DNA from: an uncultured bacterium
GTDB taxonomy: Bacteria; Hydrothermota; UBA3072
Direction of reading: 5' to 3'
DNA: 52,428 nucleotides
NCBI GenBank assembly: GCA_964485935.1
Contig: CAZALG010000001.1
Span: 1-52,428 of the forward strand
A program made the position numbers and the translations under genes. The first letter of the stretch is position 1. Each line of letters opens with the position of its first letter. The notes under the pieces were generated by a model. It saw only the letters and a list, made by a program, of their open reading frames with translations. It made no database searches and had not been told where the DNA came from. This document shows, piece after piece, positions 2,765 to 52,428 of the stretch.

Positions 2765-3193
2765 CTAAGGTTTTGGCAAAATTATATTATAATCCCCAAA
2801 TTTTATTATTTCTTTTTCGTTATTATCAAATAATATAATAATTTCCTGCTTTTGAAAATTTACATCCGCATCAACCGGATTACGAGTAGGATTGTCTTTA
2901 TCATCCCATTTTCGATCTATAGCAATTGAAAACAATGGGTTAATATAAATCTCATTCGTATTTATTTTTCCTTCAATATTTACTGGGTATAATTCTAAAA
3001 AAACAACCTTATCATGAAAACCTGAAATTTGAAAAGCTAATGAATATATATTATTTTCATATTTTAAGTTTTTTAAAAATTTAATCTGATAATCATCAAA
3101 ATAAGAAATTTTATTCTTTTCATTATCATTTCTACAATTTAATAAAATTATAAAAATTAAAATAAATATTGATAAATTCTTTCTAATCAACAT
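2765..3193 (-). CDS. Hypothetical secreted/lipoprotein-like protein
   Basis: 142-aa ORF with an N-terminal hydrophobic signal (LSIFILIFIILLNC). No recognisable domain. Confidence 0.4.
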   Translation of the reverse strand: MLIRKNLSIFILIFIILLNCRNDNEKNKISYFDDYQIKFLKNLKYENNIYSLAFQISGFHDKVVFLELYPVNIEGKINTNEIYINPLFSIAIDRKWDDKDNPTRNPVDADVNFQKQEIIILFDNNEKEIIKFGDYNIILPKP

Positions 3194-9201: not shown

Positions 9202-9317
9202 GGCTAAATCCTAACTCCTAAATCCAAAATCCTAAAAAGGAACGCAGATAGACGCAGATTATTCCTGTCGAAAGCCCAATGTCCTAAGTCCAATGTCAAA
9301 AATTCAAAAATCAAGAC
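9202..9317. repeat. Short-period degenerate tandem tracts (TCCTAAA-type x5, a 10-nt ACGCAGAT repeat x2, CCAATGT/CCTAAGT/CAAAAAT-type x6)
   Basis: ggctaaa tcctaac tcctaaa tccaaaa tcctaaa at 9202..9236. aCGCAGATagaCGCAGATt at 9242..9260. ccaatgt cctaagt ccaatgt caaaaat tcaaaaa tcaagac at 9276..9317. Confidence 0.75.
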
Positions 9318-9566
9318 CTGACCCCTCTATAGACATTTTAATATTAAAATTCGATCTATTTTTTGAGTTGACATTTCAGCATCTGGCAATTCCCAACCTC
9401 CCATCCCAATAAATTTTTCCCAAACAACTTGATTTTATTACGATATTCATACGGTGCGTAGCACCGAGTCATGAGTCAATAGTCAAAAATTCAAAAAAGA
9501 AGACCTGACCCTTCTATATGACCCTTCTATACTTCTATACTCTTAAAGCTACACTATAACAGCCAT

Positions 9567-12500
9567 TTATTTTTTAATAGCAAAAATTCTACTACCTGAA
9601 GATACTGCAATAATTAAATCATTGTATTCACCGATATAAGAAGATCCCACTCTGTGTCCCAGGTCACAATGCCAAAGAGTAACACCATTTCTCAGATTAT
9701 ATGCAGAAATTCCTTCGTGATTGGTAGAGGTATATAAAACGTCTTCGGATCTAATTACTGGCGAAGAAATACCAATATCATTTAATTTCCATTCCGTGGA
9801 TAAATCTTTATTTAAGCATAATAACAAATTATCTGAAGATTTGAAAACAAAATATTCTTCTGTTATTACTGGAGAAATATATATTGGAGTTTTTATATCT
9901 ACCTTTTCTACTATATTTCCACTTTCAGGATCGATCTTCAAAATATTATTCCAGCTTGTGTAATATATAAAATCCCGAGAAAATAAGGGGGGAGCTTTTC
10001 TTGAATTCGAAGGAAAGGAATAAAAGCGTTTATTTTCCCAAATAGTTTTACCATCCTTTGAGCAACATACTAATCCACTCCTACCCAAAACCCATATTTT
10101 TTCTCCATCTGCGTGTATCCACTGGCAGGTGCGTCCTCGTCTTTCTATGGAAATACAATTTTCTACCCTCATGCTGTAACTATCAAAAATTAGTATGCTA
10201 TCTTTTGTTAGAAAATAAACTTCATTTTCTCTGACAAATATATCTAATGCTTTAAACGGTAAAGTTTTTATAAATTCGCCGTTTAAGAGATTATGTATTT
10301 TTACATCTCCGTTAGAAGTAAAAACTTTACCTCCACTAACAGCCGGTCTTATTTTTGGCTTTTCCAGCATAAATCTCTTTCTCCAGATAACTTCACCTTT
10401 TTCTAAATCGCAACAACTTAATGCCCCATCGTACTGAGGTATTAACAGATAATTCTCATAGATAACAGGGAAAACTTCTGCATAAATAGTTTTCTTGATT
10501 GAAGTACTCCAGATTATTTCTCCAGCTGCAGCCTCTTGAATTTTCTTGTGATAATAGGTCGATTGTTTCTTATCGGTCGGCGTATATTCATCAACACCAT
10601 TATAATCGTCGGCATGAGTTATAAAGACTCTTGTTCTAGCCCCACCATCAAAAGTTTCTTCTTTTCTATAACTCAGCTCCTCTTCTGCCTTATCTCTTTT
10701 TTCTATTTTTTCTGTATATATTTTTGGATAAGAAAAGGTATACCGTTTTAAACCACAAATCCCTCCAGTTAAAAGATTCCCCTTATTATCTATATCAAAA
10801 CATCCGCTTCTTATACAGAAAGCATCTATATCAAAATACAGCCTATCGTTGTCAAATGTGCTAAATTTTTCTGTCTGTAGATGCAAATTTCCTATAGGAA
10901 AATTAGCTATTTGATACCACACATCATTAGAAAAGCCCTTTTCAACCCTTAAAATTTGAGCTCGAGTATTGCTTAAAATCTCTTTGAAATAACCATTTTT
11001 GTAATGCAATAAGCCAATGTCGGTACCTATTACCAATTCTCCCTGGTTAATGGGCGCCATATTGAACACCTGATTATCGGGAATAGTACTAGGAAAAATA
11101 ATCTCTTCCCAACTTCCACCATCCCTTCTGAATAATCTACGAGGTCCTCCCACCCATACATTCTTGCCATCAAAGACAACCGATTTTAAATCTCCAGTTA
11201 ATCCATCTTCTCTGCAGTATGTGTTCCATAATCCTGCCGAACATTGTGCTATCATTGCATCGGACACTATCCAGGCATCTCCATTATTATCCACTGCAAT
11301 TTCTGTATTTTTGTAGCTTACTTCACACCCGGAAGGGAGATACGCAAATTCTCTATCGAAATTAGAATCAAATATTATTAGTCTTTCGGAAGTAAGGACA
11401 AAAATATTTCCTCCAGTTTTTCCGGCTATATCTATAACTCTTTCCCCAGGATATGAGCGCCAACCGAGTCCGTCAAATATTGAAAGTCCTTTTGTAGTAC
11501 CAATATACCATTTCTCGCCAAAATAACGTATTACTGTAATTTTATCAGAGAGAAGACCTGGCGGCAAAATTTCTTCTATCGCATTACTTTCAATATCAAT
11601 CCTGTATACCTTCTCTAGGGTAACCCAGTATATTCGACCTTTTCTATCCATACTAATATTCCGAGGTTTAACCGACATTCTCTTCATTTGATAAATTTCT
11701 ATTTTATTCCAATCACTCCCGTCAAAACTGCAGAATCCTGTTTCTCCACTTGTAGAATCTTTATAATAACCCCAGATATTGCCAAGAGAATCTTCGAATA
11801 AATTTAGTATATTTTCTGAGATATAGTTAATCTGAAACTCACCATCAGAAAGAAGAAAACTCCCTTTTAGCCCGGAAGTTGCATTCTTGAAAATGCCATA
11901 TACGTCTTTATTTCTTGTGGTATACAATAAATCGATCTTACTTTCAGCTAAAGTTTCCGGGATGTGTCTATTAGAAAAGCTCCTCCCATCGCTTAAAAAC
12001 AAACCATCCTCAGTCGCTACTAAAATTCTCTTACCATCAAACGGCGCAATTGCTTTTGCTCTTCCCGGTGTTTGAACTTTTTTCCAGGAACCTTCAGATC
12101 CTGAATAAATGTAATTATCTTCAACAAGAAGCCATATCTTTCTTCTTTCATCAACCAGGACATCTAAATACTCACAGTTTAAATCCGGAGTTGAATTTAA
12201 AGAAAGGGTACTATCTCTGTAGATAAAAAGCCTCCCTTTTCCCCACAAAAGAACCCCTCCACTGGTCGCCTTCAGATTTGGAGTTTCTACAGTGATATTA
12301 GTGCACCAGTTTTTAAAGTCATATAAAGCTACACTTATTGAATCAGAAACCCAAAAATTACCTTCGTAATCTACCAATATGCTGCCTTCAAAAGGAAAGG
12401 GAATTTCTACTTGATCGAGAGTAGGATATGGAGTAGTTTTTAGAATTTTCCCTTCCTTGTATGCAGTTTCACTTTTTATTTTTATAACAGGCGGGTATTT

Positions 12501-17954: not shown

Positions 17955-19961
17955 CTATTTAATTAAAGTCATTTTCTTTGTTTCAGCAAAACGATTACCA
18001 ACCTGTAATACATAGAAATAAATACCACTTGATAAGTTTTCTGCATTGAAATTAACAGTATATTCTCCGGCTTCCTGAAATTCGTTTACTAATGTTTGAA
18101 TTTCTTGACCAAGCATATTATAGATTTTTAAAGAAACAAAATCTGATTGCCGCGTTGAGTATTTAACTGTGGTCGATAGATTAAAAGGATTCGGATAATT
18201 CTGTAACAATACAAAATTATCAAAACCGGCTGAAACGCCTCCTGTTTGAACTTGTTTAAGAATCCAATTATCGGGGTCGAACTCAAGATTGCTTATAGGC
18301 TTTGTTAGGGAGAGGTCAAATGTTTGCGTTTCCTGATCGTTCCAGACAGTGATTAACGTATCCCCTTCTCCCTCAAAATTGAATTTAAGTTGAATCGGCA
18401 TCTCAAATACCTGTCGTCGTCCTAAACTTGATTGTGTTTGATTTATTTGAACACTTGTTTCGAATGTTGCAGGATTTTGATAATAACTATATTCATAAAT
18501 AGGAAAATATTCGTCATATAACCATTGATCAAAAAAGAAGGTAAGGTTCATACCACTTACACTTTCGCAAATCGCTTTAAAATCTTCGGTTGTTGCTTCA
18601 GCGTACATAAGATCAGGATGGTTTGCATACTGGTGTAGACATTCGAAAAACAGAGAGTCTCCTAATACTTCTCGAAGCATATGCAGTGTCCAGGCGCCTT
18701 TATAATATATGATAGTGATAAAAATATTAAAAGGATCAGAGATATCTTGCAGGTATAGAGTTCCGTCTCCAAAATATTCAAAGAAGTCCATTTTACTTTT
18801 ATATTCTTCAATCCCGTTCGTATGTTCTTGCCACAATGCTTCGCAATATGTGGCAAATCCTTCATTCAGCCATCCATGATGCCAATCTTTACACGTGACC
18901 ATACAACCAAACCATAAATGGGCGGTTTCATGTACAGCGGTACCGAACCAGTCTATGGATATATTATTCATAATAATATTGGTTTGGTTTTCAATTGCAG
19001 AGTAAATCGGCCCGATTTCGGTCATACCGTATTTTTCGTTTCTAAACGGATATGCGCCGAATTTGCTTGAGAAAAAATTCAACACATCAGGTATCAGTTT
19101 AATAGACCCTTGCTGGGCATCATAAAAAGTTTCTTGAAAGACCCAATAATTCAGCGGATAACTTTCCCCAAAATCTCCTTCGTAGATATTTTGTACTTCT
19201 ATATAATTTGAAATTGCAACCATAACATAATAGGGTGTTATCGGATATCGGTGTCTCCATCGGAATGTATTCTTACCTCTATAAGAGACAACATCTTGTA
19301 ACAGACCGTTGGATGTTGCTGTTAATGGAATACTGTTTATAGTTGTATCGGGAATGGTTATATCGATATACACGGAATCGGGTTTATCCCCCGGTCCGTC
19401 TTTACAAGGCCACCAATAATAAGCTAAATACGGTGTTGATAAGTTTGCAATAACCGGTTCATCATTTCCATGTTCTCCATAGATCAACCCTTTATTGTAA
19501 TATGGGCCTTCGGCAATGGGTGGAATTCCTCTATAAAATATTTTTATTTCGGCCGATTCATCTGCGTTATAGACTTTGTCCAGGGTAATATTAATGGAAT
19601 CATTAGAAAATGAGAAACCGGTAGAGTTTCCAATGATGCTGTCTATGGAGAAAGAATGATGTAAATTGAGGGTGATGGATTGAACACTGTCTTCTGTTAT
19701 TTCAAACCGGCATAATACACTTCCGCTTATATATGGTGAAGAAATATTGATTTCGACATCAAGATAATAAAAAAGAACATCAAAAAGGGAATCAATATTA
19801 AAAGATTCATAACGTTGAATATATTCTATCCAGTTTTGTTGTTCGATCTTATAATTATCCAATAAAATAGTAGAATTTTGAGCGGCGGATAGATTTATCC
19901 ATGAAGTGTTTGCAATAAAGAGAAGCACCACAAACAGATTGAATTTTTGTTTTTTAAACAT
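17955..19961 (-). CDS. M1-family zinc metallopeptidase (aminopeptidase N-like) with a T9SS C-terminal sorting domain
   Basis: HETAHLWFG-X18-WLNEGFATY (HEXXH-X18-E), with an upstream SAIEN (GAMEN-like) motif. C-terminal LLQNYPNPFNLSTTVKYS...LKIYNMLGQEI...SGIYFYVL. The ATG at 19961 gives a signal-like MFKKQKFNLFVVLLFIA, although the ORF extends to 20003. Confidence 0.75.
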   Translation of the reverse strand: MFKKQKFNLFVVLLFIANTSWINLSAAQNSTILLDNYKIEQQNWIEYIQRYESFNIDSLFDVLFYYLDVEINISSPYISGSVLCRFEITEDSVQSITLNLHHSFSIDSIIGNSTGFSFSNDSINITLDKVYNADESAEIKIFYRGIPPIAEGPYYNKGLIYGEHGNDEPVIANLSTPYLAYYWWPCKDGPGDKPDSVYIDITIPDTTINSIPLTATSNGLLQDVVSYRGKNTFRWRHRYPITPYYVMVAISNYIEVQNIYEGDFGESYPLNYWVFQETFYDAQQGSIKLIPDVLNFFSSKFGAYPFRNEKYGMTEIGPIYSAIENQTNIIMNNISIDWFGTAVHETAHLWFGCMVTCKDWHHGWLNEGFATYCEALWQEHTNGIEEYKSKMDFFEYFGDGTLYLQDISDPFNIFITIIYYKGAWTLHMLREVLGDSLFFECLHQYANHPDLMYAEATTEDFKAICESVSGMNLTFFFDQWLYDEYFPIYEYSYYQNPATFETSVQINQTQSSLGRRQVFEMPIQLKFNFEGEGDTLITVWNDQETQTFDLSLTKPISNLEFDPDNWILKQVQTGGVSAGFDNFVLLQNYPNPFNLSTTVKYSTRQSDFVSLKIYNMLGQEIQTLVNEFQEAGEYTVNFNAENLSSGIYFYVLQVGNRFAETKKMTLIK

Positions 19962-20026
19962 ATTTTTACTCTTTAAATATATAAATTTTTTTGAAGATAT
20001 CAAGATGAATTTGCCATCATTTGTCG

Positions 20027-32711: not shown

Positions 32712-34232
32712 ATGTTTAAATTTTACGACCGGTTTAAGAAAATCCCTGGTATTTATGCACTGCCTATCTTGGGCGGATTCTGTTTGACTCTTTCGTTTGC
32801 TCCTTTTAATCTTTCTATTCTTGCCTGGTTTGCTTTTATTCCTCTATTTTATTCTCTCCGAGACGGAAAATATCCTTTCCTGAAGGGTTTTATTATGGGG
32901 CTTGCTTTTTTCTCTACGCTTCTTTACTGGGTTGCCTTCTCGGATGTGGTAGAGGGCACAATTGTTCCGCTTGTAGTGTTCGGGTCTTTTCTTTTAGTGG
33001 TATATCTTTCTTTATTCTTCGGTTTCTCGGGTATTTTATATGATAAATTAAATAAAAAGGGACATGTCTATTTTTTCCCGATTGTTTTTGCAGGGCTCGA
33101 ATTCTTGCGAAGCCTTTCTTCTGTTTGGGGCTTTACCTGGGGTTCAATTGGATTTTCTCAGAGCAATTTACTTCATTTGGTTCAGTTTGCCTCTATCGGC
33201 GGCGTGCCTCTTGTCTCGCTGTGGGTCCTTTCTTTAAACATCGTCATATATTTATTTTTTAAAAATTTAGATGCGGAAATAAAAAAGAAAATGATTTACT
33301 TTTTTTCTTTTCTTTTTTTACTGGTCATCCCTTTTATATATTCAGAAATTATACTTCATAGAGAAATTTCACCAATTGAACACAAAACCGTAGGAGTGGT
33401 ACAACCAAATATTTCACCGTCAGATAAAAGAAAGAATGATTTTGAGCGACTGCTCAGTATAAAAAGAACTATTGAAGAAAGCCCGGGTGCCGATTTATAT
33501 GTGTTACCGGAAACAGCATCACCTTTTTCGCTTACCCACAATAACGGGGTAAGGCTTTTTTTCGTGAACCTTGCGAAAGAAATGAACGCACCTATTATTA
33601 CTGGCATGGTTGATTATGAAAGAGAAAAAGAAGAAATTGCATATTATAATTCGTCAGCCGTAGTCGATTCATCCGGCATCAAGGGTACTTATAGAAAAAT
33701 TTTTCTCCTCCCTTTTGTGGAGAGACTCCCTTTCGATGACGTTATCCCTAAACTAAAAGAGGTAGATTTGGGCCAGGGGCAATTTACTCCGGGGGCTAAC
33801 TTTACTGTTTTTGAGATTGATAGTTTCAATTTTTCTGTTTATATTTGCTACGAAGCAATTTTCCCTCAGCTTCTAAGAAAGTTTGTAAATAGTGGGGCTG
33901 AAATTCTTGTGAATATAACAGAGGATGGTTGGTTCGGCAGAACTAACGGACCTTACCAGCATGCCCAAATGGCTGCTTTCCAATCGATAATCTTCAGGAG
34001 GGCTATTGTAAGATCGGCGAATACTGGTGTTTCATTCGTCAGCGATCCCTATGGTAGGATTATAAAGAAAACTCAGATTTTCGAGGAAGATTGTATTACT
34101 TGTAAAGTTCCTCTCTTGGAATGTAAAACTATTTATGCGAGAATAGGTAATACTTTTGGATGGACTTTTTTGTTGTTTATTTTACTGCTTATTATATCGG
34201 AACCGGTAATAAGGAAAAATAAGGGAAGATGA
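32712..34232 (+). CDS. lnt: Apolipoprotein N-acyltransferase
   Basis: Multi-TM N-terminal half followed by a CN-hydrolase domain with LPETA (Glu), YRKIFLLPFVE (Lys) and VYICYEAIFP (Cys). Confidence 0.8.
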   Translation: MFKFYDRFKKIPGIYALPILGGFCLTLSFAPFNLSILAWFAFIPLFYSLRDGKYPFLKGFIMGLAFFSTLLYWVAFSDVVEGTIVPLVVFGSFLLVVYLSLFFGFSGILYDKLNKKGHVYFFPIVFAGLEFLRSLSSVWGFTWGSIGFSQSNLLHLVQFASIGGVPLVSLWVLSLNIVIYLFFKNLDAEIKKKMIYFFSFLFLLVIPFIYSEIILHREISPIEHKTVGVVQPNISPSDKRKNDFERLLSIKRTIEESPGADLYVLPETASPFSLTHNNGVRLFFVNLAKEMNAPIITGMVDYEREKEEIAYYNSSAVVDSSGIKGTYRKIFLLPFVERLPFDDVIPKLKEVDLGQGQFTPGANFTVFEIDSFNFSVYICYEAIFPQLLRKFVNSGAEILVNITEDGWFGRTNGPYQHAQMAAFQSIIFRRAIVRSANTGVSFVSDPYGRIIKKTQIFEEDCITCKVPLLECKTIYARIGNTFGWTFLLFILLLIISEPVIRKNKGR

Positions 34233-43861: not shown

Positions 43862-45427
43862 TTATTTTGCCTTTATAACTGTTATATTCTTGGATGTCCA
43901 GGCTACAATTTCTCTTCCTTTATGTAAAATTGCAAATATTTTTACATTTATCTGATCTACTCCTTCAGGAAGTCTATTTGCCTGAAATTCACGATTTAGA
44001 ATAATTTTGCCGGCGGCAGGTGGAACAACTTTCCATGTTACCCTGTAGTCGTCAGGTTCCTTATTTAATATTAAAGGTATTTTAAAACCCTCTATTACTT
44101 GTTGCGCTGGAAAAGCTAAGTCGATATATCCCGGAGTTAATGCACTCCCTGAGTCTCCTGCATGTTGAATATTATCCTCTGAAAAACGGTCTTCACCTAT
44201 AATGATAAATGCTCTTGCCGGTTTAACATTTATATCTACGCCTGGCTCAGCTATCAAAACTCCTGCCCCGAGTCTTCTGGGTATAAAAATCCCTTTATTA
44301 TCAATAGTGCCGATATCCTCCGGGATCACCCTCCATCTTAAAGCTATTTTCTGTTCGCCCATTACCCTAAATTGAAATTCCTTATTGAGATCTAAGGTGA
44401 TAAAGTGTTTGAAAGAAGGCGTTATTTCTAAAGGTTGTATTTTTTCTGAAGTTATGTAAACGTCTGCGGAAACAACTCCTTTCCCAAATCTTTGCGGTAA
44501 AATAGCAATTACCCTTCCTTTCGATGGAATCTCTCCGGCGATAAAAGTTCCGTCATTTCTGACTCGTCCACACCTCTCAGGTATAACTTTCCAGCTAACG
44601 GGAATATTTACGTTGCCGAAACCTTCTGCATTTACTTTAAAATGTACTCTTTCGCCCGTTTTAAGAGTTACGGACTCCGGAATTATGCGCAAACCCACTT
44701 CTCCGCTTACCACCACAATAGCGCGTCCTTCACTTCCGTTTTTCTCGGCTACAATAACTGCTTTACCCGGAATTTTGGCTGTAAATAAGCCGTTTAAGTT
44801 TATCTCTCCTATATTTTCTCCCTCAACTCTCCAGTTGACTTTTTCGTCTCCTTTTACCTGGAATTGTACTTTATCTCCCGTTTTAACTCTTTTGAACCGA
44901 GGAGTAATTTGAATATCACTTATAACACCGCTTACTCTGACAAACGCTGTTTTTATTTCCCCGTTTGCAAGTACGGCAATCACCCTTCCTCTACCGCTAT
45001 TCAGAGCTGTAAAAATACCATTTCGGATACTTCCAATCCCTGCAGGTATACATTTCCATTCTTTAGTTATTCCTCCGGCAATTGTAAATTTAACTTGTTC
45101 TCCTGTTTTAAGAATTGCAACCGGAGGAAGTATTTTCGCACTTTCACTGCTGCCTATCTTAATATATGCAAAACCAGTTGCATGTTTACCGTCCCTCATA
45201 ATTCTGCATCTAAGAACACCCTTCCCCTCTTTACTCGGTATAAAAAAGTTCCCTTGAATGTGCCCAAGAGAATTAGGAACAACGCTAAATGACAAATCCC
45301 CTTCGAGCATTCTACCCTCTCTATCTAATACCCTTACGACAAAGGGAATTTTTTCTCCTACTTTACCCTCAATAGGATTTGGAGATATATGTAGCTCTAA
45401 AGATAATAACAAAAAAACTAACATCAT
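43862..45427 (-). CDS. Secreted protein with about 5-6 bacterial Ig-like (Big_2-type) repeats
   Basis: Repeated ~80-aa modules, for example TGDKVQFQVKGDEKVNWRVEGENIGEINLNGLFTAKIPGKAVIVAE. N-terminal signal. The start overlaps the anti-sigma stop (ATGA). Confidence 0.6.
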   Translation of the reverse strand: MMLVFLLLSLELHISPNPIEGKVGEKIPFVVRVLDREGRMLEGDLSFSVVPNSLGHIQGNFFIPSKEGKGVLRCRIMRDGKHATGFAYIKIGSSESAKILPPVAILKTGEQVKFTIAGGITKEWKCIPAGIGSIRNGIFTALNSGRGRVIAVLANGEIKTAFVRVSGVISDIQITPRFKRVKTGDKVQFQVKGDEKVNWRVEGENIGEINLNGLFTAKIPGKAVIVAEKNGSEGRAIVVVSGEVGLRIIPESVTLKTGERVHFKVNAEGFGNVNIPVSWKVIPERCGRVRNDGTFIAGEIPSKGRVIAILPQRFGKGVVSADVYITSEKIQPLEITPSFKHFITLDLNKEFQFRVMGEQKIALRWRVIPEDIGTIDNKGIFIPRRLGAGVLIAEPGVDINVKPARAFIIIGEDRFSEDNIQHAGDSGSALTPGYIDLAFPAQQVIEGFKIPLILNKEPDDYRVTWKVVPPAAGKIILNREFQANRLPEGVDQINVKIFAILHKGREIVAWTSKNITVIKAK

Positions 45428-46404
45428 CCCTCCTTATAGAAAGTGATATTTTTTTCTCCTTTAGTTGAAAGAGAAAGGTAATGCAACCCTTCTTCCAATG
45501 GAGGAATGGAATCACTTCCTATAAATATAACATTAGAGTCTTCATCTTTTGTATAATTTGTTATTTTTTCACCGTCAAGGCTTATTTCAACCGCTTCATC
45601 AGGGTCTTCTAATATAAAAACAATTTCAAAATCTTTCCCCACAACTGACCCTTCTTCTGGGAATACAAAACGTGTTTCTTTAAAATCTTCTTCGGAGATA
45701 ATTCCACCAGCTAAAGCACTTTCGGAAATTTTGGAGGATAGCCTTTCTATTTTGAAATTAGGAGGTTCTAAAGAATAAGTTTCTTCGCTTTGACTGAAAT
45801 CCATTGTTGTTTTACCCTTTGGTGCAGCTAATTCCTTAGAAAATTTCTGAATTTTTTCTCCTTCAACAAAATCTTTTTTTGCTACTGGCAATGAAGTTCT
45901 CGGAACTTTGGCCTCTTTCAATCTGGATTCCACAACTGGTCTTGCATCGCCAACTTCTTCTACTTTCTCTTTGTCCAAAGACTTTTCTGCACTTTTTAAA
46001 ACTTCTATTTCATCCAAAGTTTCCGTCTTCTGTATTTCCTGAGGTTTTTTTGTTGTTAACGTTAGATTATCATTATCTATGTTAAGTAAAACCGTAGAAA
46101 CAATTATTAAAACAGCCGCAGCGCTCACTGCTAAATATCTCCATCTGATCTTTGCCGAACTTATTATTACCGGAACTTCCTCTTGAGTGGTGTTTTTCAA
46201 TATATTGTCTATTAAATAGTCAGGGCACTGGATTTCCTCCTTTGTCAAACGCAGTTTTTGCAAAAGTGTTTCTTTACGCTTAAGTTCTTCTTTGCATTTC
46301 TCGCAGGATTTTAGATGTTTTTCTAAATCCCGGCGTTCTTTATTGTCTAAAGCATTATCCAAATAACCCTGTATTAATTCTTCAAATCTTTTATGATTTT
46401 TCAT
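45424..46404 (-). CDS. Anti-sigma factor (zf-HC2), single TM, with an extracytoplasmic Ig-like C-terminal domain
   Basis: HLKSCEKCKEEL (H-x3-C-x2-C) and TM segment YLAVSAAAVLIIVSTVLL. The start overlaps the sigma gene stop by 4 nt. Confidence 0.7.
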   Translation of the reverse strand: MKNHKRFEELIQGYLDNALDNKERRDLEKHLKSCEKCKEELKRKETLLQKLRLTKEEIQCPDYLIDNILKNTTQEEVPVIISSAKIRWRYLAVSAAAVLIIVSTVLLNIDNDNLTLTTKKPQEIQKTETLDEIEVLKSAEKSLDKEKVEEVGDARPVVESRLKEAKVPRTSLPVAKKDFVEGEKIQKFSKELAAPKGKTTMDFSQSEETYSLEPPNFKIERLSSKISESALAGGIISEEDFKETRFVFPEEGSVVGKDFEIVFILEDPDEAVEISLDGEKITNYTKDEDSNVIFIGSDSIPPLEEGLHYLSLSTKGEKNITFYKEG

Positions 46405-46931
46405 ATTTTTTCCTTTACCATTTCTCCAAGTTTTATAAGGGTTCTATGTAACCTGGATCTTACTGTCCCAATAGGTATTCCCAATATTTGCGCTATGGCA
46501 GAATAGTCACAGTCCTCGTAATATCTGAGCACTAAAATTTCCTGGTATTTCTTTGGTAGTAAGTATATCATGTTCTTGATGAGTTGCCGTTCGGATTTCA
46601 TAAGAGCAAACTTCTCTGGATTACCTTCTGTAGCGGGATCGGCAATATCATCGATAGAAACCTTATCTCTCTTGCGAGCTTGTTCTCTTCGGTATTTAAA
46701 AACAGTATTAAGAGCTATCCTGTAAAGCCATGTATAAACGGCCGAATCTCCTCTAAATGACTTAAATCCCCTCCAGGCATTCATGAAAACATCCTGGGTT
46801 AATTCATTTGTTATTTCGTAATTATTTGTCATGTTATAAATCATTTTAAAAATCCTCTGAGTGTGAGTTTTAACAATCTTCTCAAATCTTTCTTTCCTCT
46901 GTTCATCATTTTTACTCCCCCGTCTCTTCAT
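46401..46931 (-). CDS. ECF-type RNA polymerase sigma factor (sigma-70 family, regions 2 and 4)
   Basis: DVFMNAWRGFKSFRGDSAVYTWLYRIALNT (region 2) and YQEILVLRYYEDCDYSAIAQILGIPIGTVRSRLHR (region 4). The ATG at 46931 is preferred over TTG 46949, because the ECF-type promoter at 46940..46967 occupies the TTG. Confidence 0.8.
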   Translation of the reverse strand: MKRRGSKNDEQRKERFEKIVKTHTQRIFKMIYNMTNNYEITNELTQDVFMNAWRGFKSFRGDSAVYTWLYRIALNTVFKYRREQARKRDKVSIDDIADPATEGNPEKFALMKSERQLIKNMIYLLPKKYQEILVLRYYEDCDYSAIAQILGIPIGTVRSRLHRTLIKLGEMVKEKI

Positions 46932-46939
46932 TTTTCTAT

Positions 46940-46967
46940 TTAGATACAAAATCCGGAAGTTAGTTCC
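46940..46967 (-). promoter_or_regulatory. ECF-type promoter GGAACTA-N16-TCTAA directly upstream of the ECF sigma gene (putative autoregulation)
   Basis: The minus strand reads TAG GGAACTA acttccggattttgta TCTAA atagaaaa ATG. The motif is identical to those at 48782..48809 and 51368..51395. Confidence 0.6.
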
Positions 46968-48470
46968 CTAAAAATCATACTCATATATAATTCTAAGCAG
47001 GTGTTCATCATATCCGTTTTCCAAATATGGATAGTAGTTTATGTTTATATTCCCGAAGCTACCCAAACCCAACGTAGCGTCTACATTAAAATCAAAACTT
47101 GTACTTGAATCGTCCACGCAAGAATAAATACCAAAGGATAGTATATGGTCTCCATGATACCAGGAAATATTAGATAAAATCCTGTAAGCTCTTGTCTCTT
47201 CTATATAGACCGTTTTTTCGACCCCTATTGTATTTTCCATTTGCAGAGAACCCGAGACAGATTCAAAACCCAGTCCGATATAAGTGTATTGCTCATCATA
47301 ATATTCGGGATATTTAGCCCACTGATACTCAAGAACCGGCGAGAAACAATCGAATAGGTTCCATTTGAACGATTGATTCAAGGATACACCAGAGGTTTCA
47401 TTATCTTCGTAGGCAAGGTAATCGAAGTAAGTATAAAAGGGCCCCTTTTCATATATTCCGTTGACAAAACCGGAGGTCCTCCCGTTGTAAATATAAGAAT
47501 TCCCTGGTGTGAGATACCCATCACTCACCGTTCTTATCCCTATTTCTATATCATTCAAATTTGATTCATATACTAATTTGCCTTCAAAAGCGCTTCCTTT
47601 CATGATAGAATCTGCATAAAGATTGTCATTACCGCTTGAAAAAGCCCCTTTTATTTTTAAGGATATTACCTTATTAATATCCAATTCTGTTTCTAATGAC
47701 AGAACACCTGCTTCCTCCGGATCCTCGAATGTAAACTCCATTACATTCGAAGTATCGTCCCTTCCGTAAAAAGCTGTTAGCCCCATAGATAATGGGCCTT
47801 TTTTGAAGATTGTTTTACCACCAAGGAGCCATCTGGGATATTCTGCAAATAAAGAATCATAATCATCTGAGTATAAGATAACAGGAATTATGGAAAAATT
47901 CCCTGCACCTATTTCACCGCTTATTCCAAAACCTCCTGGAGAGCAGATTGTCAACTCATGTAGATATGGCGAAATATAACCCGCTTCCAGATAGTATTTA
48001 CCTTTTAAATAGCTTAAGTATGGGTACCAGTCTATCTCGTATTGCGGGTCATGATAAAGTGAGACCCTTAAGTAATTTTCACTCTTATAAACAGAAAAGT
48101 CTAAACCTAAAAGAGCTTCGTTTTCTCCTGTATAGAAGGTATCCGCAAAATAGGAATTATAATTTCCTATTGAAAGACTCCCCGAAAAAACAAATGGGAT
48201 TTCCTCTTTTTTTTCGGTTACAAAGAAATCCCATTCTTCTGCTTCGTTTTCGGTTTTCACTTTTAATTTGTGCTTCCCTCCGGATAGATTATTCGCTTCC
48301 GCAAAGAAATATCCTGATTTTATTTCACCGGGGAATCGCACTCCATCTAAATAAACGTTAATCAATCTTTCTTCTACCGGCGGATCGAACAGGATAGTAA
48401 TATCAAAAGGTCTGGAAACCGAATCATTAGGAGAAATTAGAAATATGGTTGAAATAATTATTTCTATCAT
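46968..48470 (-). CDS. Hypothetical outer-membrane beta-barrel-like protein with an N-terminal Ig-like module
   Basis: 500 aa, rich in alternating aromatic/polar beta-strand patterns, with a C-terminal ...LLRIIYEYDF (terminal Phe). The N-terminal segment resembles the anti-sigma C-terminal domain. Confidence 0.45.
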   Translation of the reverse strand: MIEIIISTIFLISPNDSVSRPFDITILFDPPVEERLINVYLDGVRFPGEIKSGYFFAEANNLSGGKHKLKVKTENEAEEWDFFVTEKKEEIPFVFSGSLSIGNYNSYFADTFYTGENEALLGLDFSVYKSENYLRVSLYHDPQYEIDWYPYLSYLKGKYYLEAGYISPYLHELTICSPGGFGISGEIGAGNFSIIPVILYSDDYDSLFAEYPRWLLGGKTIFKKGPLSMGLTAFYGRDDTSNVMEFTFEDPEEAGVLSLETELDINKVISLKIKGAFSSGNDNLYADSIMKGSAFEGKLVYESNLNDIEIGIRTVSDGYLTPGNSYIYNGRTSGFVNGIYEKGPFYTYFDYLAYEDNETSGVSLNQSFKWNLFDCFSPVLEYQWAKYPEYYDEQYTYIGLGFESVSGSLQMENTIGVEKTVYIEETRAYRILSNISWYHGDHILSFGIYSCVDDSSTSFDFNVDATLGLGSFGNININYYPYLENGYDEHLLRIIYEYDF

Positions 48471-48480
48471 AATTTAGGTT

Positions 48481-48509
48481 ATTTTATTGTTTTCTACACA
48501 ATTGGTCAA
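48481..48509 (-). promoter_or_regulatory. Sigma70-like promoter (CCC)TTGACC-17-TAAAAT, 10 nt before ATG 48470
   Basis: Complement of 48504..48509 is TTGACC. Complement of 48481..48486 is TAAAAT. No SD. Confidence 0.45.
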
Positions 48510-48781
48510 GGGTTTTTTGCCTTTTCTGTAAAAAGATTGAACCACAAAGTACGCAAAGAGCACAAAGATTTTGTTTTGTTAACTATATATTTCACAGGGT
48601 ATCAATTTCTTTTGCAAAGCTGAAGCTTTACTCTACATTTAAAAGATAGAGGTAGGGAAGAGTTCAAAAACAGAATAATTAGTTGGGCATGGGGTGGCTT
48701 TGTGTTCTTCGTGGTCTCTGTGGTTAAAACTATGTGTTAGCGGTTTTGCCGAGACGAACTCTTTTAAGTAAAAGTTTTTTT

Positions 48782-48809
48782 GGAACTAAATAATAATTTT
48801 TTTATCTAA
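48782..48809 (+). promoter_or_regulatory. ECF-type promoter GGAACTA-N16-TCTAA upstream of serpin 1
   Basis: GGAACTA at 48782..48788, a 16-nt spacer, then TCTAA at 48805..48809. A 20-nt leader containing GGAGG precedes ATG 48830. Confidence 0.6.
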
Positions 48810-48829
48810 TATAAAAACAGGAGGAAAAT

Positions 48830-50071
48830 ATGAAAAGTGAAAAAGCGCCTTTTTTGTTTATCGTAATTTTACTTTTAATTTTTAGTTGTGACCTCACCGG
48901 ACCCAGCGAACCGATTCGAGAATTAAGTTCTTCCGAGACGGAACTCATAGAAGCGGACAACTCTTTCGGTCTTAAACTCTTTAAAGAAATCAATGCAGAA
49001 GAAACTGAATCAAATGTTTTTATCTCTCCTCTATCTATTTCGATGGCGCTCGGTATGACTTATAACGGAGCCGCCGGGAGTACCGAGGAAGCGATGAGGA
49101 CTACACTTGAATTTGGTAATTTATCGAGGGGTGAAATAAACGAATCTTATAAAAGCCTGATTGAATTGTTAGGAAGTATTGATTCAGATGTTGAGTTTAA
49201 TATCGCGAATTCTATATGGTATAGAGACGATTTTACTTTCGAACAGGATTTTTTCGGAAGATGCAGAGACTATTTTGACGCGAGAGTAAGCCCACTTGAT
49301 TTCAGCCAAAGTGTCGCGGCAAAGGACACTATGAACAACTGGGTGAACGAAAATACAAATGGCAAAATAAAACAGATAGTCGATAATGTGGACCCATTAG
49401 CCGATGTTATGTTTCTAATAAATGCAATGTATTTTAACGGTACCTGGACTTATCAGTTTAACGAGGAGGACACAAAAGAAGATACTTTCTATCTTTCCGG
49501 AGGAGAAACCAAGATATGCAAAATGATGGAGGTAAGAAGTTATTTTAAATATTTTGAGGATTCGCTCTTACAGGCAATCGATATTCCTTACGGTAATGGC
49601 AATTATTCTATGACTGTTATACTGCCGCAGGAAGACCAAGATATTGATTTAATGATTGCGGGATTAACAAATAGCCAGTGGGATGAGTGGATGGATAGTT
49701 TCACTGAAGATTCGGTGAATTTGTTTCTACCAAAACTTAAACTTGAATATAAAATAAAAGATTTACTGAAGGACGCTCTAACAAATTTGGGAATGGGAAT
49801 TGCATTCGATGACGGGGAAGCGGATTTCACCGGAATGTATGAACCGGGAGGTATTTTTATCGACAGGATAATACATAAAACTTTCCTCGAAGTAGATGAG
49901 GAGGGGACTGAGGCTGCGGCGGCTACGGTTGTAGCGATGGCCTTAACAAGTATTGAAGGTGAAACTTACCCGGTTATTAGAGTAGATAGACCTTTCCTCT
50001 TCGCAATAAGGGAAAATCATTCCGGCACCATACTTTTTATCGGGAAGATTGTCGATCCTGTATGGGATTGA
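48830..50071 (+). CDS. Serpin-family protease inhibitor, lipoprotein (paralog 1)
   Basis: Signal plus lipobox LLLIFSC. Inhibitory-type hinge EEGTEAAAATVV followed by the reactive-centre loop AMALTSIEGETYP and the serpin signature VDRPFLFAIRE. NWV.E.TNGKI and FNG.W motifs are also present. Confidence 0.85.
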   Translation: MKSEKAPFLFIVILLLIFSCDLTGPSEPIRELSSSETELIEADNSFGLKLFKEINAEETESNVFISPLSISMALGMTYNGAAGSTEEAMRTTLEFGNLSRGEINESYKSLIELLGSIDSDVEFNIANSIWYRDDFTFEQDFFGRCRDYFDARVSPLDFSQSVAAKDTMNNWVNENTNGKIKQIVDNVDPLADVMFLINAMYFNGTWTYQFNEEDTKEDTFYLSGGETKICKMMEVRSYFKYFEDSLLQAIDIPYGNGNYSMTVILPQEDQDIDLMIAGLTNSQWDEWMDSFTEDSVNLFLPKLKLEYKIKDLLKDALTNLGMGIAFDDGEADFTGMYEPGGIFIDRIIHKTFLEVDEEGTEAAAATVVAMALTSIEGETYPVIRVDRPFLFAIRENHSGTILFIGKIVDPVWD

Positions 50072-50121
50072 AAGCGTGGAATTAAATAAAATTTTTTTAA
50101 AGGAAATAGCAGGAGGAAAAT

Positions 50122-51360
50122 ATGAAAGGTAAATTGATGTTTCTTTTGTTTGTTATGATCTTACTTTTAGTTTCTGGTTGTGATGTTACGGAGCCCACCG
50201 GACCGCTGCGAGAATTAAGTTCTGCCGAGACGGAACTCATAGAAGCGGACAACTCTTTTGGTCTTAAACTCTTTAAAGAAATCAACACAGAAACTCCAGA
50301 TTCAAATGTTTTTATCTCTCCTCTTTCTATTTCAATGGCGCTTGGCATGACTTATAACGGAGCAGCCGGGAGTACCGAAGAGGCTATGAGAACCACACTT
50401 GAATTCGGTAATCTATCTAGAGGTGAAATAAATGAGTCCTATAAAAGCCTGATAGAATTATTAGAAGAAATAGATTCTGATGTGAAATTCAATATCGCTA
50501 ATTCTATCTGGTATAAATATGATAGGCCTTTTAAACAGGATTTTTTCGAAAGATGTAGAGATTATTTCGATGCGAGAGTAAGCCCACTTGATTTCAATCA
50601 AACTGAAGCAGTGAAGGATACGATTAATAACTGGGTGGAGGAAAACACAAACGGCAGGATAAAGGATATTTTAGATTATGTACACCCACTTGCTGTTATG
50701 TATCTTGTAAATGCGATATATTTTAACGGTAATTGGACATACCAGTTTAACGAGGAGGACACAAAAGACGAGCCGTTCCATCTCCCCGGAGGAGGAACAA
50801 AAGATTGTAAAATGATGGAGGTAAAAAGCCGTTTTAAATATTTTGAGGATTCAGCTATGCAGGCAATCGATATTCCTTACGGTAATGGAAATTATTCGAT
50901 GACTGTTATACTTCCACAGTATGGTGAAGACATAGAGGAGTTTATCGCAGGATTGACGAAAGGCCAGTGGGATGAATGGATGAATAATTTTACTGAAGAT
51001 TCGGTGAATTTGTTTTTACCCAAGCTTAAATTAGAATATAAAACGGACAGCATTCTAAAAGAGGTTCTAAAAGATATGGGAATGGAAATTGCTTTTGATC
51101 AATTCAGAGCAAATTTTACCGGTATGGCTGACCCCTCAAATATCTGGATCGGCAGAGTCATTCATAAGGCCTTTCTGGAGATCGATGAAGAAGGAACAGA
51201 GGCTGCAGCAGCTACTGTTGTTGAAATGTTGGAAAGTGCAGTACCAGTACCCGGCCACCCTACTATATTTGTTAATAGACCTTATATCTTTGCAATCAGG
51301 GAAAATCATTCCGGTACAATACTTTTCATCGGGAAGATTATTGAACCTTTCTGGGAATGA
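50122..51360 (+). CDS. Serpin-family protease inhibitor, lipoprotein (paralog 2)
   Basis: Signal plus lipobox LLLVSGC. Same scaffold as paralog 1, with long identical stretches. The hinge EEGTEAAAATVV is followed by a different loop, EMLESAVPVPGHP, then VNRPYIFAIRE. Confidence 0.85.
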   Translation: MKGKLMFLLFVMILLLVSGCDVTEPTGPLRELSSAETELIEADNSFGLKLFKEINTETPDSNVFISPLSISMALGMTYNGAAGSTEEAMRTTLEFGNLSRGEINESYKSLIELLEEIDSDVKFNIANSIWYKYDRPFKQDFFERCRDYFDARVSPLDFNQTEAVKDTINNWVEENTNGRIKDILDYVHPLAVMYLVNAIYFNGNWTYQFNEEDTKDEPFHLPGGGTKDCKMMEVKSRFKYFEDSAMQAIDIPYGNGNYSMTVILPQYGEDIEEFIAGLTKGQWDEWMNNFTEDSVNLFLPKLKLEYKTDSILKEVLKDMGMEIAFDQFRANFTGMADPSNIWIGRVIHKAFLEIDEEGTEAAAATVVEMLESAVPVPGHPTIFVNRPYIFAIRENHSGTILFIGKIIEPFWE

Positions 51361-51367
51361 AAAATTT

Positions 51368-51395
51368 GGAACTAAAGGAGGTTATTTCAATCTAA
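51368..51395 (+). promoter_or_regulatory. ECF-type promoter GGAACTA-N16-TCTAA upstream of the lipoprotein gene 51417..52289
   Basis: GGAACTA at 51368..51374, a 16-nt spacer, then TCTAA at 51391..51395. A 21-nt leader containing AAGGAGG precedes ATG 51417. Confidence 0.6.
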
Positions 51396-51416
51396 AGAAA
51401 TATAAAGGAGGCTGAG

Positions 51417-52289
51417 ATGAGGAATAGAAGATTGTTAAGTTTGTTAGTTGTTTTTGTTTTAATACTTGTTATTGAGTGTGAAAACAACCCAACCGGCAAC
51501 GATATCTCTATGGATGAAGAAGCAATTGAGGATTATATATTAAACGATCTTGATTTTGCGGGATATTTTTCGTTTGAAGAATATTACGGAGAAGAAGATA
51601 CTGTGACTCGACTCAGGACCATTACAGGTCCGAGTATATGGTATAGAGAACCGCAGAATATAAACAGAGATATGTCGATCAATATAGTCAATGACTCAGC
51701 CTTTGTTAGCTTTTGGGGTAGCGTTGGTGGCGTATTTCATATACTGGAAAGAGATATATCAGCTTCTCCGGATACCGTAATCGACCATCAAAAGAATCTT
51801 GATGATAATTCTTCTAACTATGCAATATTTAAACGTGCCTTAGGAGCGACTGCTTACCGGGGATGGGTTCTTGAAAGCCTAACCGGGGTAAATGTAAATG
51901 GATTAGATCGCCAGAAGGGTGATTGCGTAGTTGTTTGGATTGATTCCCTCAGAATTAATTGTGAATCCTACGAGGACACGTTATTTACTACTCCCTTCGT
52001 ATTTTTCGAGAGAGGAGAGCTTCTTACTTTTGGGGGTCAGGAAGCAGTCACTCTCACCCTTTATTCAGGATATGATATATATTCCTATCTGCATGCCAAT
52101 ACTCTGGGAGACTGGAGAAGATGGGCATTTGAAGAAATTGAGCCAGGAGTATGGCAAGGTGATTGGGTAACTCCGCCTATTCCCGGGATTAGGGCTGTCG
52201 CGTTCGATATTCTGATGAAGGAAGCTATCGACGAAGAATATGGCGCATATCTGTCCAGAATCTGGTTGTTCCCTTACAGGGTAGAGTAA
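51417..52289 (+). CDS. Hypothetical lipoprotein downstream of the serpin pair
   Basis: SD AAGGAGG and signal plus lipobox-like LILVIEC. No recognisable domain. Confidence 0.55.
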   Translation: MRNRRLLSLLVVFVLILVIECENNPTGNDISMDEEAIEDYILNDLDFAGYFSFEEYYGEEDTVTRLRTITGPSIWYREPQNINRDMSINIVNDSAFVSFWGSVGGVFHILERDISASPDTVIDHQKNLDDNSSNYAIFKRALGATAYRGWVLESLTGVNVNGLDRQKGDCVVVWIDSLRINCESYEDTLFTTPFVFFERGELLTFGGQEAVTLTLYSGYDIYSYLHANTLGDWRRWAFEEIEPGVWQGDWVTPPIPGIRAVAFDILMKEAIDEEYGAYLSRIWLFPYRVE

Positions 52290-52312
52290 TTTCCGACCTT
52301 TTTCCGTTTCTT

Positions 52313-52353
52313 CAACAAAGGGGCAGTTTAAACTGCTCCTTTGTTGTTTTTTT
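52313..52353 (+). terminator. Rho-independent terminator
   Basis: Stem CAACAAAGGGGCAG (52313..52326) / CTGCTCCTTTGTTG (52333..52346) with one G-U pair, loop TTTAAA, then TTTTTTT (52347..52353), 24 nt after the stop codon. Confidence 0.8.
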
Positions 52354-52428
52354 ACCTAATTTACAAAAAAATTTTCCGACCCTTGACACTTTGATACAAT
52401 TATGATAGGTTGTAGATATGAAATTTGA

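Follow-up and report, generated by a model that had tools for sequence, protein, structure and literature searches.

Serpins are suicide inhibitors in which a metastable scaffold and a hinge of small residues allow the reactive-centre loop (RCL), once cleaved, to insert into sheet A. Insects vary serpin loops by means of alternative exons. To our knowledge, the few prokaryotic serpins that have been characterised come from host-associated or thermophilic organisms, each as a single gene. One source still calls the physiological role of serpins in prokaryotes enigmatic (PMC8233489). Miropin of Tannerella forsythia is described as using three adjacent bonds in its loop, Val367-Lys368, Lys368-Thr369 and Thr369-Ser370 (bioRxiv 10.1101/2025.09.05.674453, citing Goulas 2017). 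The Bifidobacterium breve serpin is described as protease-inducible under the control of an adjacent two-component system, and protection from environmental proteases has been proposed as its role (PMC8012564, citing Alvarez-Martin 2012). Tandem clusters of animal serpins, such as the SERPINA genes of rodents and squirrels and the serpins of ticks, are reported to carry hypervariable loops (PMC12646145, PMC13116602). Here, we compare with these systems a locus in a 52,428-nucleotide stretch of DNA from an uncultured bacterium (contig CAZALG010000001.1, positions 1 to 52,428; hereafter the window), where two adjacent serpin genes, serpin 1 (48830 to 50071) and serpin 2 (50122 to 51360), had been singled out by a first-pass annotation. 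Coordinates are window positions on the forward strand unless the reverse strand is named. The reading that we consider probable is that of a conserved operon of candidate division WOR-3, in which two anciently duplicated, inhibitory-type lipoprotein serpins with different baits are transcribed from an RpoE-like promoter as part of a small envelope-stress regulon.

Serpin 1 (413 residues) and serpin 2 (412 residues) are 73% identical (303 of 413 positions, one gap, BLASTP), and the stretches ETELIEADNSFGLKLFKEIN and SPLSISMALGMTYNGAAGSTEEAMRTTLEFGNLSRGEINESYKSLIELL are identical in both. Both proteins matched the Pfam Serpin family (PF00079) over model positions 2-370 of 370, serpin 1 with E = 6e-117 and 391 bits and serpin 2 with E = 1e-117 and 394 bits (curated cut-off, 27 bits); no NCBIfam model matched either protein. 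The closest solved structure was that of miropin (5ncs; E = 1.5e-81, about 39-42% identity), with an alignment that spans the RCL. An AlphaFold2 (AF2) model of serpin 1 had a predicted local distance difference test score (pLDDT) of 84 and a predicted template modelling (TM) score of 0.82, with low confidence at residues 367-381, which correspond to the loop. In Foldseek searches the model matched many serpin structures (E about 1e-38, TM-score 0.8-0.95), as expected of the serpin fold with its three beta-sheets, about nine helices and exposed RCL, and the miropin structures with TM-scores of 0.89-0.95. The modelled state is loop-inserted, that is, latent or cleaved-like, and lies 1.2-1.3 Å from cleaved miropin; the hinge would therefore be able to form strand 4A in sheet A, which indicates compatibility with inhibition and nothing further. 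Within the miropin-like serpin family, both proteins are new but ordinary members.

The hinge (P17-P6) is EEGTEAAAATVV in both proteins and is encoded at 49898 to 49933 in serpin 1 and at 51187 to 51222 in serpin 2. Its EEGTEAAAAT sequence has the P17-P9 pattern ExGTEAAAA, with Gly at P15, Thr or Ser at P14 and small residues at P12-P9, that one source gives as the consensus of inhibitory serpins (PMC8233489). Between the paralogs the 12 hinge codons showed eight synonymous and no non-synonymous differences (proportion of non-synonymous differences per site, pN, 0 by the Nei-Gojobori method), which points to strong constraint at the protein level (purifying selection), and hinge entropy was about 0 among 75 relatives. 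The first-pass annotation had described two adjacent serpins of 412-413 residues with long identical stretches and an identical hinge of the inhibitory type. Its open reading frame (ORF) coordinates were exact, and the hinge sequence and the full-length Pfam matches agree with its classification. Both proteins are inhibitory-type serpins and would be expected to inhibit proteases.

The 13 residues that follow the hinge (P5-P8') are AMALTSIEGETYP in serpin 1 (49934 to 49972) and EMLESAVPVPGHP in serpin 2 (51223 to 51261). These had been said to differ entirely, which slightly overstates the case, since the two loops have Met at P4 and the last Pro in common and differ at the other 11 of the 13 positions. 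The segment is nonetheless the least conserved part of the pair. No other 13-residue window had so low an identity, the next being a window with 4/13 identities at residues 308-320 and one with 5/13 in the signal peptide, and a window as poor as the RCL appeared in 0.18% of 20,000 shuffles of the identity vector (P = 0.0018). By the Nei-Gojobori method, pN between the paralogs was 0.62 in the loop and 0.13 in the rest of the mature protein. The paralogs show divergence concentrated in the RCL, and not the even spread across the gene that the first-pass annotation had named as evidence against its proposal. Among the 75 relatives the RCL was likewise the highest-entropy segment (2.4 bits vs. 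0.73 overall), and by canonical position its variability was 3.2 bits at P3, 2.7 bits at P2 and 1.6 bits at P1. The ratio of non-synonymous to synonymous substitution rates (dN/dS) of the loop, a comparison that had been suggested for this pair, gave no usable value. The proportion of synonymous differences per site (pS) in the paralog loops was 0.83, which is saturated and leaves the ratio undefined, and the ortholog comparison (loop pN 0.40, pS 0.66) is confounded by recombination.

Counting from the hinge gives Thr373 as canonical P1 and Ser374 as P1' in serpin 1, and Ser372 and Ala373 in serpin 2, as the first-pass annotation had estimated. The P4-P1' residues are M-A-L-T-S in serpin 1, M-L-E-S-A in serpin 2 and M-V-K-T-S in miropin. 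The same count places Thr369 of miropin at P1, as in the miropin literature, so that the numbering is correct. Placing P1 with a structure model had also been suggested; this was dropped, as AF2 returned the loop-inserted state. Variability among the relatives peaked at canonical P3 and P2, the positions that miropin uses as P1, which lends indirect support to a shifted scissile bond. By analogy with miropin, cleavage may take place one or two residues ahead of canonical P1, and with such a shift Leu in serpin 1 and Glu in serpin 2 would be the residues likeliest to set specificity.

The two loops belong to old classes, designated AM-A-L-T-S for serpin 1 and EM-L-E-S for serpin 2. The overall pS between the paralogs was 0.54, corresponding to a synonymous divergence (dS) of about 0.95, which is near saturation. 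When signal peptide and loop were masked in a neighbour-joining tree, each paralog fell into a clade with orthologs from other WOR-3 genomes, serpin 1 with P0002, P0003 and P0004 (loops of the form A[MI][AG][LV]TSI) and serpin 2 with P0029, P0043, P0044, P0045 and P0055 (loops of the form EM[LW]ES). Nucleotide identity to the orthologs in the most closely related genome (locus L001) was 92 and 85%, compared with 76% between the paralogs. The loop of serpin 1 differed from that of its ortholog by one residue (pN 0.027) and is thus almost frozen, indicating maintained specificities rather than ongoing diversification. Synonymous divergence, the masked clades and the closer orthologs together show that the duplication is ancient and that the loop classes have been maintained. 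The first-pass annotation had proposed a recent duplication followed by diversification of the loops; neither part agrees with these data, the less so as part of the loop difference arose by recombination.

Evidence for recombination came from serpin 2. When serpin 2 was compared with its ortholog, pS was 0.66-0.71 in the loop and 3' end and 0.29 in the scaffold. A maximum chi-square analysis of informative sites placed a breakpoint after nucleotide 1121 of the gene (about position 51242), at the P1 and P1' codons (permutation P < 0.0005). Upstream of the breakpoint, 161 sites of serpin 2 follow the ortholog and 51 follow the last-position serpins of other arrays; downstream, 2 sites follow the ortholog and 20 follow the last-position serpins. 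The ortholog showed the reciprocal pattern with serpin L003_3. A breakpoint within the RCL shows that recombination of a module comprising the P' side of the loop and the C-terminus, swapped between array members, is a partial source of loop diversity. The 5' third of the paralogs had lower synonymous divergence (pS 0.19-0.35), with low values at codons 16-60. Recent gene conversion of this region was rejected after a four-gene comparison in which it was conserved alike among orthologs and paralogs; since the conservation is common to all four genes, it may at most reflect an old event or a constraint at the nucleotide level.

Arrays of this kind were found to be widespread. A homolog search detected at least about 8,000 homologs at E < 1e-20, placed the window in WOR-3 and contained many same-contig serpin pairs and triplets among the matches listed. 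A scan of species-representative genomes detected 268 relatives, and the best 80 of these belong to WOR-3, KSB1, Marinimicrobia, Zixibacteria, Gemmatimonadota, Calditrichota, Ignavibacteria and, in many cases, Bacteroidota. The 83 loci that were fetched include 81 distinct ones, as L004 and L005 repeat the contigs of L001 and L002. Two or more serpin ORFs lay within about 7 kb in 32 of the 83 loci (two ORFs in 23, three in five, four in two and five in two), and nearly all serpins of these multi-serpin loci had a hinge of the EEGTEAAA type with differing loops. The survey of copy number in related genomes that the first-pass annotation had recommended thus does not bear out its statement that bacterial serpins, and surface-anchored tandem pairs in particular, are uncommon, at least for phyla of the Fibrobacterota-Chlorobiota-Bacteroidota (FCB) group. 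Tandem arrays with diverse loops are a regular feature of this bacterial serpin family, and no description of such arrays in bacteria was found in the literature searched. Arrays are not strictly contiguous everywhere: in L001 an ORF of 163 residues without a Pfam match (9299-9790, forward strand) lies between two serpins.

The region upstream of serpin 1 contains a putative promoter of the extracytoplasmic function (ECF), RpoE-like type, GGAACTA-N16-TCTAA (48782 to 48809), whose TCTAA ends 20 nt before the ATG. The sigma-E promoter of Escherichia coli is given as GGAACTT, a preferred spacer of 16 nt and TCAAA (PMC1312014). Searched as GGAAC-N18-TCTAA, the motif had three exact matches in the window where 0.71 were expected, all of them in this locus, intergenic and correctly oriented. 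The other two lie directly upstream of an ECF sigma factor gene (46940 to 46967, reverse strand), suggesting autoregulation, and, as GGAACTAAAGGAGGTTATTTCAATCTAA (51368 to 51395), before a gene for a 290-residue protein. A relaxed search allowing one mismatch gave 10 matches in the window, including the three exact ones, against 4.7 expected; the seven additional matches were near background and mostly in coding sequence, and no further regulon members were detected. The motif was then compared among ten distinct WOR-3 loci (the window, L001-L003 and L006-L011). It preceded the first serpin in all ten and an internal serpin in none, the sigma factor gene in each of the six loci that contain that gene (the window, L001, L002, L003, L010 and L011), and the gene for the protein of about 290 residues in six loci (the window, L001, L003, L006, L007 and L010). 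Both blocks and their spacing were conserved across loci, and the sequence of the spacer varied.

An alignment of TGGAACTAAATAATAATTTTTTTA (48781-48804) with TGGAATTAAATAAAATTTTTTTA (50077-50099) confirmed that the region upstream of serpin 1 is duplicated upstream of serpin 2 and that TCTAA follows the first copy only, both as the first-pass annotation had noted. The decayed promoter copy before serpin 2 (50077 to 50099) also has GGAAT in place of GGAAC and gave no match to the promoter motif. The gap between the two serpin genes is 50 nt long and contains no terminator-like site, and a strong intrinsic terminator with a 15-bp stem followed by a T run (52313 to 52346) closes the transcription unit of the serpins and the 290-residue protein. 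Since the second copy has lost both blocks and no terminator occurs before 52313, transcription of serpin 2 most likely begins at the promoter of serpin 1, in keeping with the co-transcription that had been predicted. A scan for sigma-70 promoters found hexamers no more frequently than in shuffled sequence, and an Rfam scan of 48300-52428 gave chance-level matches only and no known RNA element. A reading of TGGAAC as a sigma-54 or Bacteroidetes-type promoter was rejected because it lacks a GC element at -12 and the proper TTTG/TAnnTTTG spacing, and because the Shine-Dalgarno sites of the genes are strong.

A sigma factor gene near the serpins is not confined to WOR-3. An ECF-type sigma gene lay within 7 kb of a serpin in 13 of 72 other loci and was often directly divergent from it. 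Three Gemmatimonadota loci contained a different motif, TGTCACA-N14-18-CGTT, in exactly two copies each, one directed at the divergent sigma gene and the other at the serpin (L030, 1398-1424, reverse, and 1586-1612, forward; L032, 6722-6748, reverse, and 6858-6884, forward; L035, 2802-2828, reverse, and 2977-3003, forward). The other 80 loci lacked the motif, no further copy occurred in about 1 Mb, and this arrangement would represent an independent replicate of the sigma/serpin wiring. In five Bacteroidota loci (L034, L042, L048, L061 and L066) the intergenic regions between sigma and serpin genes share AAAAAGGTTGCGTT(C), which is palindromic in L048 and may serve as promoter, operator or terminator. 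No report of an ECF sigma factor linked with serpins was found in the literature searched.

Both serpins are probable lipoproteins. Their N-termini, with LIFS and LVSG before Cys20 (codons 48887-48889 and 50179-50181), fit a PROSITE-type lipobox rule, and this Cys was invariant in 73 of 73 aligned relatives, so the lipobox signals reported by the first-pass annotation are well founded. Two proteins with C-terminal sorting domains of the type IX secretion system (T9SS), one GH39-like and one an M1 metallopeptidase, and an apolipoprotein N-acyltransferase (Lnt) are encoded at 5751-7937 (reverse strand), 17955-20003 (reverse strand) and 32712-34232, consistent with a diderm FCB-group organism that uses T9SS export and triacylated lipoproteins. 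In 55 of 75 relatives the residue that follows the lipobox Cys (position +2) was Asp. In E. coli, Asp at +2 causes retention in the inner membrane. The residue is ambiguous for location, since the sorting rules of WOR-3 may differ from the E. coli rule, and surface anchoring of the serpins is unproven. The occurrence of Asn, Asp or Gln at lipobox position -1 in some family members and the dominant Asp at +2 may reflect an unusual lipobox or sorting signal in this lineage.

The gene order around the serpins was conserved in three other WOR-3 genomes. On one strand are genes for a 500-residue protein, the ECF sigma factor, an anti-sigma factor with a zf-HC2 domain and a Big_2 protein; on the other, two or three serpin genes are followed by one or two genes for orphan proteins of about 290 residues and these by xseB. 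In the window the sigma factor (46401 to 46931, reverse strand) has 176 residues when read from the ATG of called orthologs, contains the Pfam domains Sigma70_r2 and r4_2 and matched TIGR02937 (sigma70-ECF) with 103 bits (cut-off, 42.9). Its gene overlaps by 4 nt that of a single-pass anti-sigma factor (45424 to 46404, reverse strand), which has an N-terminal Pfam zf-HC2 domain, a hydrophobic segment near residues 88-108 and a match to NF052375 below the cut-off. The anti-sigma gene in turn overlaps by 4 nt the gene for a 521-residue Big_2-domain protein (43862 to 45427, reverse strand) of conserved synteny, which is probably in the same operon given this overlap. The 500-residue protein (46968-48470, reverse strand), encoded upstream of the sigma gene promoter, is conserved and had no Pfam or NCBIfam match; its aromatic C-terminus (...YEYDF) resembles a sorting signal of outer-membrane beta-barrels. 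In the intergenic region upstream of serpin 1 is an imperfect inverted repeat (48534-48567/48698-48731) with 34-nt arms that are 76% complementary and 130 nt apart. At this spot related genomes carry variable extra genes, namely a 222-residue ORF that has an ECF motif to itself and genes of the MamF_MmsF and GH30 families.

The 290-residue protein (51417 to 52289) is a probable lipoprotein that is always encoded after the serpin array. Its Cys21 is invariant and lipobox-like, and the window copy has Glu at lipobox position -1. No Pfam or NCBIfam model matched it, and its 41 homologs are all from this lineage. The AF2 model (pLDDT 82.5) is a beta-sandwich with only weak, Ig-like Foldseek matches (TM-score 0.2-0.3). 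Neither these profile searches nor the model gave grounds for regarding the protein as a protease, an identification that was rejected, and the predicted fold is not diagnostic of function.

If the locus works as we propose, both serpins would operate by suicide inhibition, in which a protease that cleaves the bait loop would be trapped as an acyl-enzyme and dragged across the molecule. The two baits would each be stable within their orthologous group and, being different and maintained, probably cover different protease specificities. Serpin 1 would be directed at enzymes that prefer a hydrophobic P1 (subtilisin, chymotrypsin or elastase type) and serpin 2 possibly at Glu-specific enzymes, given its conserved Glu aligned with the Lys of miropin. 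Transcription would start at the single RpoE-like promoter before serpin 1 and read through into serpin 2. The presence of the same motif before the sigma gene, serpin 1 and the 290-residue lipoprotein gene suggests that the serpins probably belong to a small envelope-stress regulon, which inactivation of the membrane anti-sigma factor would switch on. Swaps of the P'-side and C-terminal module between array members account for part of the loop diversity. Several observations weigh against parts of this reading. The promoter is a putative one, with motif conservation as the basis of its assignment. The single-serpin loci L008 and L009 keep the motif and have no sigma gene within 7 kb, and the exact motif was absent before the 301-residue gene of L002. 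No serine protease linked to the locus was detected in the window or in related loci: Pfam analysis of ten large window ORFs gave only metallopeptidases (M1, with M23 nearby), and a crude scan of the 83 loci for subtilisin and trypsin active-site motifs gave two isolated matches, so that no target is indicated. Saturated synonymous sites and recombination confound dN/dS, so that positive selection on the loop is not demonstrated, and P1 of the native protein cannot be placed from a serpin 1 model that is loop-inserted. Asn, Asp or Gln occupied lipobox position -1 in 40 of 115 family members (P0028, P0029, P0079-P0090 and others), in which the Cys was still invariant, making lipidation likely rather than established.

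The regulon could also serve a purpose other than defence, in that the serpins would restrain the cell's own proteases, either secreted or T9SS-exported enzymes or a periplasmic site-1 serine protease that degrades the anti-sigma factor, in which case they would exert negative feedback on the ECF pathway. We give this a smaller though appreciable chance. The apparent membership of the serpins in the regulon of the adjacent sigma/anti-sigma pair, the use of T9SS export by the genome, the high conservation of the serpin 1 loop between orthologs, as would suit a fixed endogenous partner, and the frequent Asp at +2, which under the E. coli rule would place the proteins at the inner membrane facing the periplasm, are all compatible with it. 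The sorting rules of WOR-3 are not certain to be those of E. coli, however, a protease gene was linked in none of the 83 loci, and the characterised relatives, miropin and the B. breve serpin, act on foreign proteases. The hypervariability of the loop, a copy number of one to five and module shuffling are also better suited to diverse and changing targets. A different objection concerns the promoter itself: GGAAC-N18-TCTAA could be a conserved intergenic repeat or the site of another factor, with the serpins transcribed independently of the sigma factor from housekeeping promoters. The loci that keep the motif without a nearby sigma gene would fit this explanation, as would an AT-rich region in which sigma-70-like hexamers are no rarer than chance. 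We regard it as unlikely because two blocks are conserved at a fixed 18-nt spacing around a variable spacer, because the element always lies just upstream of the ribosome-binding site in the direction of the gene, including directly before the ECF sigma gene, and because the layout is that of sigma-E and the same two-way arrangement recurs with a different motif in Gemmatimonadota.

The remaining explanations concern the proteins. One or both serpins might be non-inhibitory, serving as substrate, binding protein or chaperone, and the loop differences would then be irrelevant to specificity. Such serpins exist, and Thr or Ser at canonical P1 is unusual for classical inhibitors, yet miropin also has Thr there, inhibits potently and makes use of neighbouring bonds. 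With a hinge that matches the inhibitory consensus exactly under strong purifying selection, and a model in which the hinge is predicted to take its place as a strand in sheet A, loss of inhibition is very improbable. Hardly any weight can be given to a recent tandem duplication followed by rapid diversification of the loop in place by point mutation to yield two new specificities, although the genes are adjacent and 73% identical, share about 48 nt of upstream similarity and have a low pS in the 5' third. That 5' conservation extends to all four genes compared, and a dS of about 0.95 together with the tree and the ortholog identities refutes a recent origin: the paralogs sit in separate orthologous clades shared with other genomes, each is much closer to its ortholog than to the other, the serpin 1 loop is nearly identical to that of its ortholog, and loop change involved recombination.

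Extended beyond WOR-3, the reading of these genes as an envelope-stress regulon leads to a more tentative proposal, that an envelope-defence module which joins ECF sigma/anti-sigma pairs to batteries of lipoprotein serpins recurs across phyla, in WOR-3, Gemmatimonadota and possibly Bacteroidota. We regard this as possible but doubtful at present. In such a module, proteolytic attack would inactivate the anti-sigma factor and the sigma factor would induce suicide inhibitors with different baits, whose repertoire would be renewed by recombination of loop and C-terminal modules between array members. The locus suggests that free-living FCB-group bacteria commonly keep small, membrane-anchored serpin batteries with distinct, maintained baits, that these are wired to an envelope-stress sigma factor, and that new baits come from recombination within the loop. 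If so, bacterial serpins would gain a testable physiological setting, inducible envelope defence against proteases; the arrays would offer inhibitor engineering a range of naturally occurring loops carried by a single stable scaffold, and an uncultured phylum would contribute a simple promoter/sigma pair. The proteins are from a known family and no new mechanism is involved; the value of the locus lies in its organisation and regulation, namely a battery with maintained loop classes, loop recombination and probable control by an adjacent ECF sigma factor that is replicated in a second phylum.

The arrangement of the regulatory genes resembles that of E. coli sigma-E (RpoE), which is also an ECF sigma factor with a membrane anti-sigma factor encoded immediately downstream and an autoregulated promoter, and the promoter layouts correspond (GGAACTT-N16-TCAAA in E. 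coli, GGAACTA-N16-TCTAA in the window). The window sigma factor nevertheless scored below the RpoE equivalog cut-off (99 bits vs. 236), its anti-sigma factor is of the zf-HC2 and not the RseA-like type, and the E. coli regulon contains nothing that corresponds to the serpins or the orphan lipoprotein. As in the animal clusters, scaffold and hinge of the window pair are conserved and divergence centres on the loop, an arrangement that would provide several specificities. It differs from them in being a predicted bacterial operon rather than separately transcribed genes, in having ancient, maintained classes rather than lineage-specific bursts, and in that loop recombination is demonstrated whereas dN > dS is not demonstrable. 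As in B. breve, serpins are encoded beside an envelope-spanning sensor system, but this is an ECF sigma/anti-sigma pair instead of a histidine kinase and response regulator, two or three serpins replace one, the organism is a diderm whose serpins are predicted lipoproteins, and induction by proteases is hypothetical.

Miropin (PDB 5NCS, 5NCT, 5NCU and 5NCW) is the nearest relative in both sequence and setting. It shares the lipobox signal peptide and the EEGTEAAA hinge with the window serpins, and all three are from FCB-group bacteria that use the T9SS. No ECF control of miropin was reported in the literature searched. Surface exposure is an established property of miropin and only a possible one of the window serpins. 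The loops align residue by residue, E-M-V-K-T-S in miropin, A-M-A-L-T-S in serpin 1 and E-M-L-E-S-A in serpin 2, so that Lys, the main P1 of miropin, is replaced by Leu in serpin 1 and by Glu in serpin 2. Miropin is a single gene of a host-associated pathogen and draws its breadth from three adjacent bonds in one loop; in the window lineage, which comprises free-living uncultured bacteria, breadth would come from two or three paralogs with different loops.

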